The notes beneath the pieces were generated by a model. That model did no database searches and was not told the origin of the DNA. It saw only the letters and a list, made by a program, of their open reading frames with translations. Positions 46,518 through 61,768 of a stretch of 64,000 nucleotides of DNA are shown here, in pieces. The stretch comes from Mycobacterium sp. (GTDB lineage Bacteria > Actinomycetota > Actinomycetes > Mycobacteriales > Mycobacteriaceae): positions 12,277 to 76,276 of the forward strand of contig JAVHWM010000130.1 in the NCBI GenBank assembly GCA_032159765.1. Reading direction: 5' to 3'. Numbering within the stretch: position 1 is the first letter of the stretch; each line of letters opens with the position of its first letter. Position numbers and translations under genes: made by a program.

Positions 46518-46955
46518 ATGAGCGATGATGAGCATCATGAAAGTACGGCGATGACGCAACCTTCTGCCAACCCGCCGCCGCAGTGGGCGCCGCAGTATTC
46601 CCAGCCGCCGGGCGGCTATTACCCGGCGTATTCGCAGGTGCCGCATACCAATTCGATGGCGGTCGCGTCCCTGATATGCGCTTTCGTGATGGCGCCGCTG
46701 GGAATTGTGTTCGGGCATCTTGCGCTGTCGCAGATCCGGCGTACGGGCGAGGAGGGCAGGGGATTCGCGATTGCCGGCCTTGCGATTGGCTACGTGGCTA
46801 CTGTGCTAGGCATCTTGGGCATCATCCTGTGGTTGACGGTCTTCGCGGCGGTGACGCACGAAATCCACAACCAGTTTCCAACCTTCCAACAACCGACCTT
46901 TCCAACCATGCCAACCTTCGAACAGCCGACCACGTTTCCGTCGTTTCCGCGGTGA
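46518..46955 (+). CDS. DUF4190 domain membrane protein
   Basis: 145 aa. Pro/Gln/Tyr-rich N-terminus, then two TM segments with GIVFGHLALSQIRRTGEEGRGFAIAGLAIGY, typical of DUF4190. Confidence 0.75.
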   Translation: MSDDEHHESTAMTQPSANPPPQWAPQYSQPPGGYYPAYSQVPHTNSMAVASLICAFVMAPLGIVFGHLALSQIRRTGEEGRGFAIAGLAIGYVATVLGILGIILWLTVFAAVTHEIHNQFPTFQQPTFPTMPTFEQPTTFPSFPR

Positions 46956-53157: not shown

Positions 53158-54072
53158 TCAGATTTTCCCGGTGGGGAACATCGTCTTGACAGCCTTGGTG
53201 AGCGTATTGCGGGCCACCGCGTCGCTGGTCGGCTGCAGGGCGCCGATCGTCATCACGTAGCGGTGGTCGGAGCCGATCACGCCGGTCGAGAGGTGTAGTT
53301 GGTCACCGCTGTCCCAGCAGCAGAACCAGCCTTGCTTGACCGCTACCGGTGAGGCGAACAGGCCGTCGGGGATGCCGAACCGCTGCGGATACCCGTCGAC
53401 GCCTGTCGGGGTCGATTGCGACAGGTCGTTGATGATCTTGTCGGCCTGGTCAGCTGGAAGCCCGCCACCGTTACCGAGCAGCTTGTCGTAGTAGCGGACG
53501 AGATCGCTTGCGGTGCTTAGCGTGACGTCCCAGTGCCCGTTGTAAGGCGCCGTCGTCGATCTCAGGCCGTACCGCGCGGTGACGCGGTTGATGATGTCGC
53601 TGCCGCCGCTGCGATTCCAGAACACGTCGGCGGCGCCGTCATCGGAGGAGCTCAGCATGGCATCGAATGCCCGCACGTCGTCGGGGGAGAGCTGCATCTG
53701 GCCCTTCGACACTTGCAACAGCAGGTCGTCGGCGATGAACAGCTTGGCCACCGAGGCGATCGGGAGCGAAACATCTTTGCCGTTGCTGACGATCTGGCCC
53801 GTCTTGCGGTCGAGCGCCACGATCGAGATCGCCGCACCCGCGTCTGCGGCCTCGGAGCTGGCCTGACGCACGCGGGCATCCAGGCCGTCGAACGCGGTTT
53901 CGGCTGCGGGGGCGTCGTCTGTGGGTGCGGCCGTTGCCAGGGCCACCGGCGCCGTACCAGTGCCACGGTGTCCCATCGGCATGCCGTCCGCCCGTGCCAC
54001 ACATGCGGCGACGAGCACCGTGGAAACCAGCACCGCGGTTGCCGTCCGCACATCCGACCGCGGCCGACGCAT
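53158..54072 (-). CDS. lipoprotein with class-A beta-lactamase-like/serine hydrolase fold (LppW-like)
   Basis: 304 aa. Lipobox LVAAC at the N-terminus. Position between trmD and rplS on the opposite strand matches Rv2905. Confidence 0.72.
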   Translation of the reverse strand: MRRPRSDVRTATAVLVSTVLVAACVARADGMPMGHRGTGTAPVALATAAPTDDAPAAETAFDGLDARVRQASSEAADAGAAISIVALDRKTGQIVSNGKDVSLPIASVAKLFIADDLLLQVSKGQMQLSPDDVRAFDAMLSSSDDGAADVFWNRSGGSDIINRVTARYGLRSTTAPYNGHWDVTLSTASDLVRYYDKLLGNGGGLPADQADKIINDLSQSTPTGVDGYPQRFGIPDGLFASPVAVKQGWFCCWDSGDQLHLSTGVIGSDHRYVMTIGALQPTSDAVARNTLTKAVKTMFPTGKI

Positions 54073-56344: not shown

Positions 56345-56650
56345 ATGAGCGCCGAGGATCTCGAAAAGTACGAAACCGAGATGGAACTCTCGCTCTACCG
56401 CGAATACAAGGACATCGTCGGCCAGTTCAACTACGTGGTGGAGACCGAGCGCCGGTTCTATCTGGCCAACAGCGTGGAGCTGATTCCGCGAAACGCCGAC
56501 GGCGAGGTGTACTTCGAGCTCAGGCTTGCCGACGCGTGGGTGTGGGATATGTACCGGCCGGCCCGGTTCGTCAAGCAGGTGCGCGTGATCACCTTTAAAG
56601 ACGTCAACATCGAAGAGGTGGAGAAGCCGGAGCTGCGCCTTCCGGACTGA
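56345..56650 (+). CDS. DUF2469 protein (Rv2901c-like)
   Basis: 101 aa. MSAEDLEKYETEMELSLYREYKDIV is highly conserved in actinobacteria. Confidence 0.85.
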   Translation: MSAEDLEKYETEMELSLYREYKDIVGQFNYVVETERRFYLANSVELIPRNADGEVYFELRLADAWVWDMYRPARFVKQVRVITFKDVNIEEVEKPELRLPD

Positions 56651-56865
56651 GAGGCCGACCTGCGCGATCGTGGATGAGCGCTTGCGCGAAGACCATGATC
56701 TCGAGCCAGCACCCCGATCGCCACATACACTCCACCCGTGGCAAACTTTCTCCATACCGGGTGGAAAAGTCGCGTGAACCTCGGGGGTGTAGATCGGACG
56801 GTCGATGCGCGGCTGGCCACCAGCGTGAAAAAATCCGGAAGCCAGAGCACGAAAGGGCAGCTCTC

Positions 56866-57567
56866 TTGACACAGTCTGCATGGGCCGTGGAGCTCAACGA
56901 TGAAAACCCGGATCCGCGGGTGGCATGCGTGGTTTTGGTGGATGTTTCGGGTTCGATGCAAGGGCAGCCGATTGCAGCGCTGGAGCGGGGTTACGCGGCA
57001 TTCACCCACTACCTGCACACCGACAGCCTCGCCAGCAAGCGCGTCGAGGTCGCTGTGGTGGCATTCGGGTCCGTAGCGACAGTGGTGGTGCCCATGCAGG
57101 AAGCGCGGATGCTGGAGCCGGCGAGTTTCCAAGCGTCGGGACGTACGAACATGGCCGCGGGCATTCACCTTGCACTCGACATCATCGAGGAGCGCAAAGA
57201 GGCGTATAAGCATGCGGGTTTGCAGTACTACCGGCCGTGGATCTTGGCCCTGACAGACGGTGAATCCAATCCCGAAGGATTCGACCAGGCGGTCGCCCGG
57301 CTGAACGCCACCGAAATGGCCCGGGGAGTAACGGTATTCGCTGTCGGTGCTGGGCCGTACGTCAACTATCAGCAACTGGCGCGACTCTCCGTGCAGCGAA
57401 GCCCGGCCCCCTTGGACGGGCTGAAGTACGAAGAGCTGTTCGAGTGGCTGTCGGCGTCTTTGAGCAATGTGTCCAACTCGACCGAGTTCGCTCGCAATGA
57501 CGAGGGTCTTTACGCGATGGGCGACCAGATTTCACTGCCGCCGCTGAGCGGTTGGACCACCGTGTGA
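56866..57567 (+). CDS. von Willebrand factor A domain protein (TerY-like)
   Basis: MIDAS DVSGSM (DxSxS) plus GRTNM and LTDGES. Start is TTG 56866 (AAAGGG upstream) or GTG 56887. The upstream part of track ORF 56674.. looks non-coding. Confidence 0.8.
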   Translation: MTQSAWAVELNDENPDPRVACVVLVDVSGSMQGQPIAALERGYAAFTHYLHTDSLASKRVEVAVVAFGSVATVVVPMQEARMLEPASFQASGRTNMAAGIHLALDIIEERKEAYKHAGLQYYRPWILALTDGESNPEGFDQAVARLNATEMARGVTVFAVGAGPYVNYQQLARLSVQRSPAPLDGLKYEELFEWLSASLSNVSNSTEFARNDEGLYAMGDQISLPPLSGWTTV

Positions 57568-58517
57568 CCGCTGGCGACGCGGAAGCAGACAAGCCAGGTA
57601 GTTGGGAGTGGGCGGTCTGCGGAGCTTCGGTGACGGGATGGCGGCACGTCGAGAAGGGCCTTGGCTGCGATGACGCGTTCGCCTACGGGGTCGCGGGCGA
57701 TTACCTGGTGGTAGCCATTGCCGACGGCGCCGGATCGGTGAGCGGAACGTCGGCGTGGGGAGCTTTCGCAGCTTGTCAGAGCGTGCTTCTCGACGCGACG
57801 GACCCGGAGTTCATCAACGACTTTCGTACGGGATCCGACCAGCGCGCAGAAGTATTGATGCGCTGGCTATTCGAGGGTGCGATGGATCGGGTCAAGACCC
57901 AGGCCGAGTTCTTCGGCCTTCCTGTCGCCAAGCTGTCGACCACTCTGTCAGTCGCGGTGGCCGATCCCGAGATGGCCGCTTTTGGTCAGATCGGTGACGG
58001 AATCATCGTTGCCGACTACGCGGAGTCGATCCGCACGGTGCTGACCGAGACAAAGGACGAGTACGCAAACGCCACATGGTTCCTGCAATCCAATGGCGCG
58101 CTCGATGAAGCCTTTCAGACTGCTGTGCTGAAAAACGTTGCAGCATTTGCGCTGAGCACCGACGGCATGAGCTACAAGATCACCAACATCGCTACCGGCG
58201 AAGCGTACGAACCTTTCTTCAAGGGCTCGTGGACTCACGTCCGCTCCGGCTCGGACGCTGCCGATTTCGCTGCTCTGCTTCGTGGCATCCAGGATGACCA
58301 AACGGGCGACGACAAGACCATGGTGCTGGCGGCGATGCGGTGGGAGGACGATACCTTTCATCCGTCCGCGCGACCGATATCGAAAACGGTGGTGCACTCC
58401 GCTCCGCCCGCCAAGCCCGAGCTCCCCGGCGCGCAGGAGCAGACCCGCTCTGACGAACCCGCACCAGCTGCAGTAAATGGTTCGGGAGGCGAGGTCAGAC
58501 ATGACCAAGTCCGGTGA
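57564..58517 (+). CDS. PP2C-family Ser/Thr phosphatase-like protein
   Basis: CGASVTGWRH..GCDDAF, VVAIADGAGS, QIGDGIIV, ALSTDGM metal-ligand Asp motifs. GTG 57564 overlaps the vWA stop (GTGA). TTG 57552 is the alternative. Confidence 0.75.
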   Translation: MTAGDAEADKPGSWEWAVCGASVTGWRHVEKGLGCDDAFAYGVAGDYLVVAIADGAGSVSGTSAWGAFAACQSVLLDATDPEFINDFRTGSDQRAEVLMRWLFEGAMDRVKTQAEFFGLPVAKLSTTLSVAVADPEMAAFGQIGDGIIVADYAESIRTVLTETKDEYANATWFLQSNGALDEAFQTAVLKNVAAFALSTDGMSYKITNIATGEAYEPFFKGSWTHVRSGSDAADFAALLRGIQDDQTGDDKTMVLAAMRWEDDTFHPSARPISKTVVHSAPPAKPELPGAQEQTRSDEPAPAAVNGSGGEVRHDQVR

Positions 58518-59730
58518 GCGCCTTGTCGCCGCGACCGGCGAAGAGATCCAGCTGGGCACCGTCGTCGCGAAGGCGGGCGAGGGCACGATCTACGACGTGG
58601 TGGGCCACCCCGAATGGGTCGCAAAGATCTTTCACCCCACCCTGACCGACCTAGAGTCGAAGATAGCCAAGGTCAGCGCGATGATCGATGCGCAGCCAGA
58701 TGGTGCGATCCAGGACGACGGGTTTGTGGTGCTCGCGTGGCCGCTGCACGCTGTGCTGCGAGAGGGCACGACCGCGGGCTTCATCATGCCGAAGATCGAC
58801 GCGACGACAGCGGTCGAAATTCACAGCATGAGCAATCCGTCGAATCGGGTGAACCCACTGCGCGGAGCACCACAGTGGACCAAGGGCGCCACGTGGAATC
58901 ACCTGTTGAACGTCGCGACAAATCTGTGTCTCGCGGTCAAGGTGGTGCACCGCGTCGACGCGGTGATTGGCGACTTCCAGGAGCGAAATATCTTGGTGTC
59001 CAACACCACCCGGGTCACCCTTGTCGATTGCGATTCGATGCAGTTCACCGATCGCGACGGCCGGCAATTCCTGTGCGCGGTCGGGCGGCCGGAGTTCACC
59101 GCGCCCGAACTCGCCACCAAGAACCTGCGCGTCGACGCACGCGAGAAGCCGTCCGACCTATTCGCGCTGGCGGTGCACATCTATCTGTTGCTGATGCACG
59201 GGAATCACCCCTTCATGCGGGGTCGATGGGTGGGGCAGGGCGACCAGCCTGACGCGCTCAAACTGGCCAGGACGGGCGACTGGGCGGGCGGCCCGTCGTC
59301 GCGGCTGATGACTCACCCACTCGCGCCGCCGGTGTCATTTCTGCCAACCGAGATCCGGCGATTGTTCACGAGGGCCTTCACAGAGGGCGCCAGTCATCCG
59401 GACATGCGTCCGACCGCCGACGAATGGCAGCGCGCGCTGATGCGCGTGCGGGTCACGGCGTGTCCTGTTGCGCCACAGCAACATCAGATCCCGGCGGGCG
59501 CAGCCTTCTGCCCGTGGTGTGCCATCGACGCAGAGCGGCGAGCACGCAAGAACTCTCAGCGGGTCCAGCCCGCCTATGCGGGGGCGGGGAGTGGGGCTTC
59601 GCCGTGGCAATCGAGACAGCACGGACATTCGGCCACCCCGAATCAATCTCGCGGGGAGTGGACACCAGTGTTCGTGGTGTTGGGGTTCATCGCGGTGATC
59701 TTGCTGATCGTGATCATCGCGGCGGTATAG
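58501..59730 (+). CDS. Hanks-type Ser/Thr protein kinase-like protein with C-terminal zinc ribbon and TM tail anchor
   Basis: G-loop AKAGEGTIY, VAKIF Lys, catalytic loop GDFQERNILV, DCDS in the DFG position, FTAPE. CPVAPQQHQIPAGAAFCPWC ribbon. Terminal TM VFVVLGFIAVILLIVIIAAV. ATG 58501 is preceded by GGGAGGCGAGG. Confidence 0.8.
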   Translation: MTKSGERLVAATGEEIQLGTVVAKAGEGTIYDVVGHPEWVAKIFHPTLTDLESKIAKVSAMIDAQPDGAIQDDGFVVLAWPLHAVLREGTTAGFIMPKIDATTAVEIHSMSNPSNRVNPLRGAPQWTKGATWNHLLNVATNLCLAVKVVHRVDAVIGDFQERNILVSNTTRVTLVDCDSMQFTDRDGRQFLCAVGRPEFTAPELATKNLRVDAREKPSDLFALAVHIYLLLMHGNHPFMRGRWVGQGDQPDALKLARTGDWAGGPSSRLMTHPLAPPVSFLPTEIRRLFTRAFTEGASHPDMRPTADEWQRALMRVRVTACPVAPQQHQIPAGAAFCPWCAIDAERRARKNSQRVQPAYAGAGSGASPWQSRQHGHSATPNQSRGEWTPVFVVLGFIAVILLIVIIAAV

Positions 59731-59736
59731 CCGGCC

Positions 59737-60378
59737 TCAGTGCATCTCCCAGGGCGGGCCGTAGGTCGTCACACTGTCTCCCTCAGTCGAAGTCAATCGC
59801 GCGAACGGACGCAGCGTGATACCGCCACCGGCACCGGTCACGGACCCGTGCGCTCCGGCCACGGCGACCGCGCCATCTGGACCCGAGACGTCGACCTTGA
59901 ACGTCGAAACTTCATGCAGCCCAGGCCCATTGCCGAGCTCGATGGCGAACGACGTGCCGGGCAACAGAGGTGGCGACGTCACGAGGAGATTTCCGTTCTG
60001 CGAGAAGACTCCTGGGATGCTCGTCTGATCGAAGTTGAAGTTCGGGGTGGTGTACATGAAGTTGACCCCGTTGCCCAATTTCCAGGGAAAGCCGATCTGG
60101 TATCCGAATTCGAGTGTGCCGGTGAAGTCTTCGGCGCCGTCACCCGCGACGTGATAGACGGCGCGGCCGTTGTGGAACCATTCACGGCTCAGCGGATTCA
60201 TGTCGAGCGGGGAGACGCCGTTGAGCAGGACGTCCCACTGCTGGATCGTCAATGTGCGGCCCTTGCTGTCCACGTCGCTCAGCTCGTTGTCCAGCGCCGC
60301 ATTCGACGTGCCGACGCCAATCGACATCGCGACGACGACGGCGACGAACGCAACCAGTGAACGGACGATGGTCTTCAT
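59737..60378 (-). CDS. mspA: MspA-family outer-membrane porin
   Basis: 213 aa from ATG 60378. LDNELSDVDSKGRTLTIQQWDVLLNGV, REWFHNGRA, GYQIGFPW, LGNGPG, LRPFARL and GDSVTTYGPPW are collinear with M. smegmatis MspA. Confidence 0.92.
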   Translation of the reverse strand: MKTIVRSLVAFVAVVVAMSIGVGTSNAALDNELSDVDSKGRTLTIQQWDVLLNGVSPLDMNPLSREWFHNGRAVYHVAGDGAEDFTGTLEFGYQIGFPWKLGNGVNFMYTTPNFNFDQTSIPGVFSQNGNLLVTSPPLLPGTSFAIELGNGPGLHEVSTFKVDVSGPDGAVAVAGAHGSVTGAGGGITLRPFARLTSTEGDSVTTYGPPWEMH

Positions 60379-60477
60379 CGGAAGAAAAGATAGGCGTGTA
60401 ATTCCCGCGACCGCGGTAGCGCACACATTCGCTATCTGAACTGAGGCGGAATTGTTGCCAATTGGCGTTCGAGCTGC

Positions 60478-60897
60478 TCACGCTTCAAGCCCGCGCTGCG
60501 CCAGCCATTGCTCTCCCCGTCGTTTGGAGGCACGCGACAACCACGCATCCTGGATCAGCTCGGCGAGTTCGTCGGCGTCGATCCGGCTGACCCGCGACGC
60601 GCGCACGAGCACGGACAGATGCCCGTCGAAGTGTTTGGTCGTGAAGAACGGGCTGCCCGGGTCTTGGACGAGGGCCTTCTTGTCGTCTTCGGAGCCCACC
60701 CAAATGACGATGACGTCGGGGTACATCTCGCCGGTCTCGGGGTCGCGGGCATCCGGGCGTGGGTTGCGGAAGAAGACGAATGACTTGCCGCCCACCTGAT
60801 AAACGGCATTGCCTTTCGGGCCGTCGATGCGGGTGGTGTGTGGCATGGCGGCGGCGATTGCATGCACGTCGCTGACCGCTGCCGGTCTCCTGACCAT
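60478..60897 (-). CDS. MmcQ/YjbR-like protein (tentative)
   Basis: 139-aa ORF with coding-like composition. The pattern YQVGGKSFVFF ... HFDGHLSVLV ... ELAELIQDAW resembles the YjbR fold family. Assignment is from memory of the family pattern only. Confidence 0.5.
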   Translation of the reverse strand: MVRRPAAVSDVHAIAAAMPHTTRIDGPKGNAVYQVGGKSFVFFRNPRPDARDPETGEMYPDVIVIWVGSEDDKKALVQDPGSPFFTTKHFDGHLSVLVRASRVSRIDADELAELIQDAWLSRASKRRGEQWLAQRGLEA

Positions 60898-60935: not shown

Positions 60936-61328
60936 ATGGCAGGGGCGAGTGGGTTGACCAAAATAGCGTTGGCGTTGGGAGTCGGTGCAGTCGCGGCGAC
61001 GGCCGTGGCCACCGGCACGAGTGCGGTGGCCGGTGCAGCCCCGCCGCCGTGCACGGCAGCCGAACTATCCAGCGTCGTCAGCGGTGTGACGGCACAAGCC
61101 GCGCAGTTCCTCGAGGCCCATCCCGACGCGAATGATGTTCTGACACAGGCTGGTTCGCAGCCGCCGCAAACGGCCAAGGCGACGGTGCGGGGCTACTTCG
61201 TGGGGCACCCCGATCAGTTCCTGCAATTGCAGGGCATCGCGCAGCCGCTGATCGGTATGCGTTCGCGATGCAACGCGAGTGTGTCGATCGGACAGGTGGC
61301 CAACCTTCTGGATGCGCTGCAGGAATAG
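60936..61328 (+). CDS. hemophore-related secreted protein (Rv0203/Rv1174c family-like)
   Basis: 130 aa. Signal peptide, mature PPPCTAAELSSVVSGV...FLEAHPDANDVL...YFVGHPDQ...QPL...C pattern with two Cys. Confidence 0.62.
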   Translation: MAGASGLTKIALALGVGAVAATAVATGTSAVAGAAPPPCTAAELSSVVSGVTAQAAQFLEAHPDANDVLTQAGSQPPQTAKATVRGYFVGHPDQFLQLQGIAQPLIGMRSRCNASVSIGQVANLLDALQE

Positions 61329-61459: not shown

Positions 61460-61768
61460 ATGAAAACACTCGGAGTAGCGGCTGCTGCCGCCATCGCTCT
61501 CGCCATCGCCGGATGTAGTGGTGGTAGTGGAGGGGTAGACACCTCGTCGCACTCCTACCAGGAGGGTTTCAAGGACGCGAGCGCCGAACTCGTGGTCTCC
61601 TATGTACAGGGCGGGATGAGCGGTACGGAAGCCTGCCAGGCTGCGTTCGATATGTATAAGGGCGCCTTCTCGATTGACAATCACGACCAGTTCATGGCGG
61701 GCTGTGCCGACGGATTGAAGCAGCACCCCGTACCCAGCTACAAGTCTGGTTTTCAGCCAAACCCGTAG
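61460..61768 (+). CDS. small lipoprotein, unknown function
   Basis: 102 aa. Lipobox LAIAGC after a signal peptide. Two further Cys. Confidence 0.6.
   Translation: MKTLGVAAAAAIALAIAGCSGGSGGVDTSSHSYQEGFKDASAELVVSYVQGGMSGTEACQAAFDMYKGAFSIDNHDQFMAGCADGLKQHPVPSYKSGFQPNP

Follow-up and report, generated by a model that had tools for sequence, protein, structure and literature searches.

What three overlapping genes for a vWA protein, a PP2C phosphatase and a tail-anchored Ser/Thr kinase do together in a mycobacterium is the question raised by positions 56651-59730, the region under study here, of a 64-kb stretch of Mycobacterium DNA (referred to as the window). Judged by sequence, the triad is an intact relative of the module formed by yegL-pphC-yegI in E. 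coli ("TerY-P"), so that no new system is involved. It is very probable that it constitutes a complete, functional and stand-alone TerY-P triad of the YegL-PphC-YegI branch, most likely serving as a phosphorylation switch, reversible and self-contained, on the cytoplasmic side of the membrane.

The initial annotation had described three co-directional, overlapping genes that follow a 215-nt leader, and the sequence bears out both the coordinates and the two overlaps. The three open reading frames (ORFs) span 56866-59730 on the + strand, downstream of a DUF2469 gene that stops at 56650, and comprise the vWA gene (56866-57567, TTG start), encoding a YegL/TerY-type cytoplasmic protein of 233 aa; the PP2C gene (57564-58517, GTG start), encoding a PphC (YegK)-type PP2C_2 phosphatase of 317 aa; and the kinase gene (58501-59730, ATG start), encoding a YegI-type atypical Hanks Ser/Thr kinase of 409 aa. 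Read directly from the sequence, the vWA/PP2C overlap is GTGA (57564-57567), in which the PP2C start lies over the vWA stop, and the PP2C/kinase overlap comprises 17 nt (58501-58517); by these 4-nt and 17-nt overlaps the triad is translationally coupled. The vWA start was assigned to the TTG at 56866, hence the spacer from the DUF2469 stop to the vWA start (+ strand, 56651-56865) to a length of 215 nt, because most vWA homologues are 233 aa long with 100% query coverage, the tblastn alignment of a homologous vWA protein extends to 56866, and a Shine-Dalgarno-like GAAAGGG block, 8 nt 5' of the TTG, is common to the window and its nearest relative, L005, on alignment. Only the last ~45 nt of the spacer are kept in that relative, the remainder having diverged. 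A search of 55.5-62.5 kb, spacer included, gave no Rfam match, and a promoter scan of the region gave no sigma-70-like promoter and terminator-like matches no more numerous than expected by chance.

All of the motifs that the initial annotation had quoted were found in the translations, i.e. DVSGSM, the T of SGRTNM and LTDGES in the vWA protein, IADGAGS, GDGI and STDG in the phosphatase, and GEGTIY, VAKIF, DFQERN, DCDS and TAPE in the kinase. The three domain assignments stand as well: the vWA protein matches Pfam VWA_2 with 38.8 bits (gathering score 27) and VWA with 37.8 bits, also above the cut-off; the phosphatase matches PP2C_2 (PF13672) with 121.7 bits (E 4e-35); and the kinase fold is supported by an AlphaFold2 (AF2) model and Foldseek comparison. 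On alignment of 19-46 sequences, the catalytic and metal-binding residues are intact. By contrast with these profile matches, a search of NCBIfam was of no use for assignment, giving only remote kinase and chelatase matches far under their cut-offs.

In the vWA protein the metal ion-dependent adhesion site (MIDAS) is intact, being formed by D26-x-S28-x-S30 (56941-56955), T94 and D131, each of which is conserved in at least 95% of 46 sequences including that of E. coli. Conservation extends to an N-terminal NPDPR motif, a C-terminal F-x-WLS-x-S...S cluster and a near-terminal GW. BLASTP comparison with E. coli YegL gives 41% identity from end to end (E 2e-43), whereas a plasmid-encoded 'tellurium resistance protein TerY' shares 27.8% identity at 84% coverage (E 8e-8); the protein is thus nearer to YegL (41%) than to TerY (28%), which is a distant homologue. 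The name given to its homologues by JGI is likewise 'uncharacterized protein YegL'. Among the loci of related genomes, the vWA protein has a median identity of 77% to that of the window, compared with 59% for PP2C and 61% for the kinase, which makes it the most constrained of the three components.

The phosphatase shares 29% identity with E. coli PphC (BLASTP, E 1e-16), with D54 aligning with the catalytic D46. Its conserved acidic residues are D37, D54 (in ADGAGS), D145 (GDG), D200 (TDG) and D249/D250, and the catalytic domain is followed by a C-terminal tail of ~60 low-complexity residues.

The kinase domain occupies approximately residues 10-316, with a G-loop (G26-E-G28), K42, the catalytic loop G157-D158-F-Q-E-R-N163 and D176-C-D178-S179 in the position of DFG. 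An AF2 model, made from an alignment with 41 homologues, has a predicted local distance difference test score (pLDDT) of 87.7 and a predicted TM-score (pTM) of 0.82; Foldseek matches it, with a probability of 1.00 over ~307 columns and target-normalised TM-scores of 0.66-0.70, to complete kinase domains, including those of M. tuberculosis PknB (1mru, 5u94), Lck and CaMKII. Because the model superposes on whole kinase domains, the assignment of the N-lobe residues G26-E-G28 and K42 is sound. The kinase is 33% identical to E. coli YegI over 356 aa, in an alignment that runs through the CPWC motif (BLASTP, E 1e-42), and the residues conserved between actinobacteria and E. coli include G26, G28, K42, D158, D176, D178, S179, P202, E203 and C321/H328/C337/C340. 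Within the IGDFQERN and VDCDS loops D158, D176, D178 and S179 are invariant, and N163 is also conserved.

Directly C-terminal of the kinase domain lies a treble-clef-like knuckle, C321-x6-H328-x8-C337-P-W-C340 (59461-59520, + strand), two ligands of which are on a β-hairpin and two at a helix N-terminus (E318-320, E329-331 and H338-354 in the AF2 model). The four ligands do not vary, either among 19 sequences with E. coli YegI as a member or among 41 from mycobacteria. The knuckle is the counterpart of the 'zinc ribbon' described for TerY-P kinases, and zinc binding is predicted. The C-terminal membrane anchor proposed in the initial annotation is likewise supported: a Pro/Gly/Ser-rich disordered linker (approximately residues 355-386; pLDDT <50 at 364-386) leads into a single predicted transmembrane (TM) helix, WTPVFVVLGFIAVILLIVIIAAV (59659-59727, + strand; residues 387-409), which ends the protein with no residues beyond it and coincides with an AF2 helix at 389-408. 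Homologous kinases have a TM segment at the same position followed by 0-300 further residues; in the window kinase there is no extracytoplasmic sensor domain.

The kinase family is large, with 2458 cluster representatives (50% identity) at E<1e-30; its conserved part corresponds to query residues ~10-345 and its members range from 360 to 1091 aa in total length. The JGI name for the kinase homologues is 'DNA-binding helix-hairpin-helix protein with protein kinase domain'. The kinases of the window and of L005, when placed in a neighbour-joining tree, group with short (~410-460 aa) kinases that adjoin vWA-PP2C genes, and longer paralogues (540-790 aa, with extracytoplasmic domains) occupy other clades. 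Since it is the short kinases that adjoin vWA-PP2C, the tail-anchored form is the normal form of the mycobacterial core-triad kinase. A sequence search of the PDB with all three proteins returned only PknB, at 19 bits, so by this search no structure has been solved for any member of the three families.

The JGI names of the homologues, which are those of the YegL and YegI COGs, pointed to the yeg locus, and the proteins of yegL-pphC-yegJ-yegI from E. coli MG1655 were accordingly compared pairwise with those of the window. The E. coli locus has the same vWA-PP2C-kinase order, and in non-K-12 E. coli pphC and yegI overlap (ATGA). YegI has been characterised as an active, membrane-bound and Mn2+-preferring Ser kinase with VGDxxQxS and DSD loops, in which Ser-162, following the second Asp, is essential for activity (10.1101/819920); PphC dephosphorylates autophosphorylated YegI, and the D46N substitution abolishes this (10.1101/303594). 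The window kinase shares with YegI the G-D-x-x-Q catalytic loop, the D-x-D-S sequence in place of DFG, the Ser after the second Asp and membrane attachment (predicted here), and the catalytic D46 of PphC corresponds to the conserved D54 of the window phosphatase. The two systems also differ. The window kinase keeps the catalytic-loop Asn (N163) that YegI has lost, the window PP2C has an extra disordered tail of ~60 aa compared with PphC, and the neighbours are rnhB-DUF2469 and yraN in the window but the Hsp70-like yegD and mdtABC in E. coli. The E. coli K-12 triad (L008, 2149039-2153128) is flanked by yegD, encoding an Hsp70/actin-like ATPase; a cluster in H. pylori has been listed as 'DnaK homolog, WxG100 family' (PMC4978471).

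The match to the TerY-P architecture that the initial annotation had drawn also holds, since the operon encodes a vWA protein whose MIDAS is intact, together with a PP2C_2 phosphatase and a kinase with its knuckle. This architecture was defined computationally in 2012 by Anantharaman, Iyer and Aravind, whose work we cite through the summaries in PMC11090510 and PMC4978471, and consists, according to the former, of a TerY-like vWA protein, a PP2C and a Ser/Thr kinase (STK) fused to a C-terminal zinc ribbon. Compared through such secondary descriptions, the window triad resembles the family in that a single operon encodes a TerY-like vWA protein, a PP2C and an STK whose C-terminus has a zinc-ribbon-like element, and its relatives are linked to WxG/FtsK genes, as the family is described to be. 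Unlike TerY-P as so described, it lies outside any Ter, McrBC/CoCoNuT or DNA-processing cluster, and its kinase has a TM anchor after the zinc knuckle, which differs from the TerY-P kinases in the same descriptions.

As to where such triads occur, a scan of GTDB representative genomes returned 67 actinobacterial loci, 45 of which contain a contiguous, co-directional vWA-PP2C-kinase triad. These 45 span Mycobacterium, Mycolicibacterium, Mycolicibacter, Nocardia, Frankia, Pseudonocardia, Micromonospora, Actinomadura, Actinoplanes and Acidimicrobiia; 14 of the 67 loci contain between two and four paralogous kinase genes. In none of the 67 is rnhB, DUF2469, yraN, comM, MspA, YjbR or MHB nearby. 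Only the metagenomic relative L005 carries a triad in the rnhB-DUF2469/yraN slot, with identities of 83% for the kinase and 94% for the vWA protein; the candidates for further genomes with this arrangement, two vWA homologues of 86-87% identity, proved to sit in other contexts. One vWA gene of 86% identity (L077:181-882) stands alone, no PP2C or kinase gene following it; its metagenomic contig, of 4.3 kb, has small ORFs and an rve transposase fragment next to it; it may represent a decayed or disrupted triad.

Comparison with L005 gives ratios of nonsynonymous to synonymous substitution (dN/dS) of 0.06 for the vWA gene (dS 0.69), 0.17 for the PP2C gene (dS 0.69) and 0.17 for the kinase gene (dS 0.59), the flanking rnhB gene having a dN/dS of 0.09 and a dS of 0.59. 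Because the dS of the triad equals that of its flank and its dN/dS is 0.06-0.17, we conclude that the triad is functional and has long been inherited vertically in this lineage; its position is lineage-specific, yet it is old there and under purifying selection. The claim that the triad was inserted in the rnhB-yraN backbone is thus upheld with respect to its lineage-specific placement (found in none of the 67 loci), but not as a recent event, given that its dS is that of rnhB. A repeat search for insertion scars at the triad borders gave nothing beyond chance, and neither an integrase nor a tRNA gene was seen at the borders. The suggestion of more A/T third positions than in the flanking genes proved weak. 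The G+C content of third codon positions (GC3) is 0.75 for the vWA gene, 0.71 for PP2C and 0.80 for the kinase; upstream rnhB, DUF2469 and lepB have values of 0.81-0.85, but downstream yraN (0.76) and a comM-like gene (0.73) are not distinct from the triad (0.71-0.80), and a foreign origin by composition was dropped for that reason.

Members of the family are also found on mobile elements, kinase homologues being present in 58 plasmid records. A lone triad, with a kinase 55.8% identical to that of the window, is carried by the Rhodococcus ruber conjugative megaplasmid pmega_2 (L076; NZ_CP145321.1, 66.7-71.2 kb), between a MobF relaxase gene and genes for tyrosine recombinases, IS21 and RelE/Phd; its kinase ORF is missing from the PLSDB gene table. 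The plasmid-borne triad shows that the module travels, and presumably functions on its own.

Taken with the E. coli biochemistry, these features suggest how the switch would operate. The kinase, held at the membrane by the helix at its C-terminus, would phosphorylate itself in the activation segment, as inferred from its homology with YegI; S179 would be the equivalent of Ser-162, which is essential in YegI, and by the same homology catalysis would involve Mn2+/Mg2+, the atypical GDxxQ catalytic loop and the DxDS loop. By analogy with the action of PphC on YegI, the PP2C_2 enzyme would strip the phosphates from the kinase and so reset the switch. The soluble vWA protein may be the partner or substrate, its metal-dependent (MIDAS) binding of a target being what is switched, and its invariant C-terminal serines S196, S198, S203 and S205 would be the likeliest phospho-acceptors; we assign it the role of regulated partner or substrate because of the translational coupling, the strict co-occurrence and its conservation, the highest of the three. 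The output would be encoded away from the triad in the window genome. As to history, the module probably entered the variable DUF2469-yraN slot in an ancestor shared with the one known relative, and purifying selection has acted on it since.

Several observations weigh against this reading. The Pfam Pkinase match of the kinase, at 29.5 bits, falls just short of the gathering score (31.7) and is confined to profile positions 99-198, in the C-lobe. The AF2 model of the vWA protein is of low confidence (pLDDT 59.8) and was used solely to confirm a generic vWA fold, its best Foldseek matches being the MIDAS-containing vWA/I-domains of CMG2, ANTXR1 and integrin alpha-M. We found no experiment on any actinobacterial member, and a literature search for mycobacterial members or for COG4245/COG4248 likewise returned nothing relevant. 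The topology of the kinase is not that of YegI, a protein of 648 aa with two membrane passes and a long cytoplasmic C-terminal region annotated as helix-hairpin-helix (HhH), whereas the window kinase has 409 aa and one terminal TM helix. 'Stand-alone' here means that no partner was seen within 56 kb upstream or ~11 kb downstream, a limited view in which the downstream sequence covers 4 kb in the window and ~11 kb in the longer contig L001. Contigs identical to that of the window are present in the JGI metagenomes 3300064039, 3300044807 and 3300044722. Finally, the physiological role of the E. coli module, its trigger and its substrates were still unsolved in 2026 (PMC13232886). The initial description of the module as one of unknown mechanism and role overlooked its direct E. 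coli counterpart, and is too strong with respect to the kinase and phosphatase biochemistry, which exists for E. coli.

With respect to what the switch might control, we rank the candidate outputs in the order trans-control of a WXG100/FtsK system, anti-phage defence, metal or tellurite response, and control of the adjacent porin and haemophore genes. The first of these arises from the neighbours of the 67 loci, which were clustered and their cluster representatives searched against Pfam. An EssC-like ATPase of ~1480 aa (Yop-YscD_cpl/FHA plus FtsK_SpoIIIE) lies within 10 kb in 24 of the 67 loci and beside 16 of the 45 contiguous triads, in an island whose other members encode WXG100, WXG100-CHAP, WXG100-PGAP1-like, DUF6777, zinc-ribbon-RDD, DUF7159 and PQQ propeller proteins; DUF7937 multi-pass membrane proteins are encoded in 27 of the loci. 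This recurrent island, examples of which are seen in L006, L007, L011, L017 (14896-19341), L018, L029 (11326-13700) and L052, resembles a locus for toxin secretion of a type-VII-like but non-ESX kind, as yet undescribed. As many as four paralogous kinase genes occur within 21 kb (L026, L036). An association of TerY-P triads with WxG and FtsK genes had been noted earlier (PMC4978471, PMC11090510), and in the neighbour-joining tree the window kinase belongs to the short-kinase clade that is mostly EssC-linked. On these grounds the window triad could be a trans regulator of such an island located elsewhere in the genome, gating export of WXG100-fused toxins of CHAP amidase or lipase-like type in interbacterial competition. 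We regard this as unlikely, since tblastn with representatives of all recurrent neighbour clusters found no homologue of any of the island proteins, EssC-like, WXG100 and DUF7937 included, in the 64-kb window, L001 and L005 have none either, 29 of the 45 contiguous triads lack an EssC gene in the surrounding 10 kb, and the copies on plasmids are solitary. The only neighbour-cluster protein matched in the window is a small hydrophobic one (cluster c12; 46701-46829, + strand, 60% identity over 43 aa), which recurs near related mycobacterial triads. A direct kinase-to-FHA phosphothreonine (pThr) relay was considered and dropped, the FHA domain of the EssC-like ATPase being degenerate: in 14 of the 15 sequences that could be aligned, Thr or Ile takes the place of the canonical pThr-binding Arg, and the Ser of SxxH is variable, which leaves kinase-FHA coupling unsupported. 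The H1 type VI secretion system (H1-T6SS) of P. aeruginosa is controlled by a threonine-phosphorylation pathway involving PpkA, which has a vWA domain, the PP2C PppA, and Fha1. It offers, for the EssC-linked relatives and as an analogy only, a case of a kinase, a PP2C and a vWA domain controlling a secretion machine; it differs in that the vWA domain of PpkA is a periplasmic part of the kinase whereas the window vWA is a separate cytoplasmic protein, in that secretion genes were not found in the window, and in that the mycobacterial EssC-like FHA domains are without canonical pThr-binding residues. More speculative, and in our view rather improbable, is the general proposal that the short TM-anchored triads found in environmental mycobacteria, the window copy included (in trans), control an undescribed non-ESX secretion system comprising the EssC-like ATPase with its degenerate FHA domain, WXG100-CHAP and lipase-like fusions, DUF6777, DUF7937, RDD and arrays of paralogous receptor kinases, with the highly conserved vWA protein, in place of an FHA-pThr contact, as a phospho-regulated adaptor.

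The initial annotation had also linked the triad to anti-phage defence. The TerY-P cassette of Gao et al. 2020, which has the same architecture of vWA, Ser/Thr phosphatase and Ser/Thr kinase and was reported to act against T7-like phages (PMC7699616, PMC11090510), would serve as the model: the triad would sense infection and phosphorylate host or phage proteins, possibly leading to abortive infection. The mobility of the family, as seen in the 58 plasmid records and in the lone Rhodococcus triad beside MobF, recombinase and toxin-antitoxin genes, is consistent with such a role, as are the lineage-specific placement in a variable slot and weak kinase matches to the defence kinases PD-T4-6 and MAD6. 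The PADLOC check, run at permissive thresholds with E. coli YegL/PphC/YegI as a control, nevertheless came out negative: the TerY model scored 13.1 bits (E 0.012), no PADLOC model matched the PP2C, and the matches of the kinase (PD-T4-6, MkoA, mad6) were weak and generic. The E. coli proteins fail PADLOC likewise, and with no usable TerY-P match for either triad a defence assignment by homology was rejected. According to PMC11090510, moreover, the validated kinase of Gao et al. 2020 ends in an OB fold, whereas the window kinase ends in its zinc knuckle and TM helix. This difference and the failure of the E. coli triad in PADLOC set the YegL branch apart from the one validated against phages. 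Nor does the window locus lie in a defence island, its neighbours being housekeeping, porin, YjbR and haemophore genes with no defence genes among them, and dS and dN/dS speak for long vertical retention. A defence role, which is suggested by architectural analogy and mobility only, thus seems distinctly unlikely. It is very unlikely that the triad is a sensor of metal, tellurite or oxidative stress, in which the MIDAS would sense metal and the kinase and phosphatase relay the signal. The distant homology with plasmid TerY and the intact MIDAS are compatible with this, and a metal-sensing function for TerY-P switches was hypothesised by Anantharaman et al. 2012, as cited in PMC11090510. Against it, no terZABCDE/TerD-type neighbours were seen in the window or related loci, and the vWA protein is closer to YegL than to TerY. 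MIDAS sites are, moreover, normally structural ligand-binding sites and not metal sensors. Local control of the adjacent envelope genes, for an MspA-type porin and a haemophore, would fit the predicted membrane tether of the kinase and the proximity of the genes, but is extremely improbable, since L005 keeps the triad and has a different gene, encoding a 331-aa protein, in place of MspA, and none of the 67 other loci has MspA, YjbR or MHB genes close by.

The self-contained phosphorylation switch that we favour sits in a window neighbourhood that is itself variable downstream. The MspA-family porin gene (59737-60426, - strand), with a Pfam MspA score of 117 bits, runs convergently to the kinase gene and begins 7 nt past its stop; L005 has at this point a + strand gene without a Pfam match (L005:4852-5847), and because it carries this different gene we regard the slot downstream of the triad as variable. 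A YjbR-family gene (60478-60897, - strand), the haem-binding haemophore (MHB) gene (60936-61328, + strand) and a 102-aa ORF (61460-61768, + strand) form the remainder of the accessory slot before yraN. The last of these has no Pfam match, an N-terminus resembling a lipoprotein signal (…LAIAGC) and, at 0.68, the lowest GC3 of the region. Further upstream, a gene for a 304-aa beta-lactamase/peptidase-like protein (53158-54072, - strand) lies between trmD and rplS and interrupts the co-directional housekeeping run rpsP-rimM-trmD … rplS-lepB-rnhB.

The overall results place the window triad among systems whose outlines are already known, i.e. the architecture defined in 2012, the E. coli enzymes and the link of triads with WXG/FtsK genes, and to these it adds no new principle; what is new is an intact minimal member at an unusual chromosomal position in an uncultured mycobacterium. 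M. tuberculosis has eleven Hanks kinases and one PP2C. The triad family is not among these enzymes; it abounds in environmental mycobacteria, where a single locus often has several paralogous kinases. As a compact, translationally coupled module with intact catalytic residues, the triad is a convenient entry to what YegL-PphC-YegI/TerY-P switches do.

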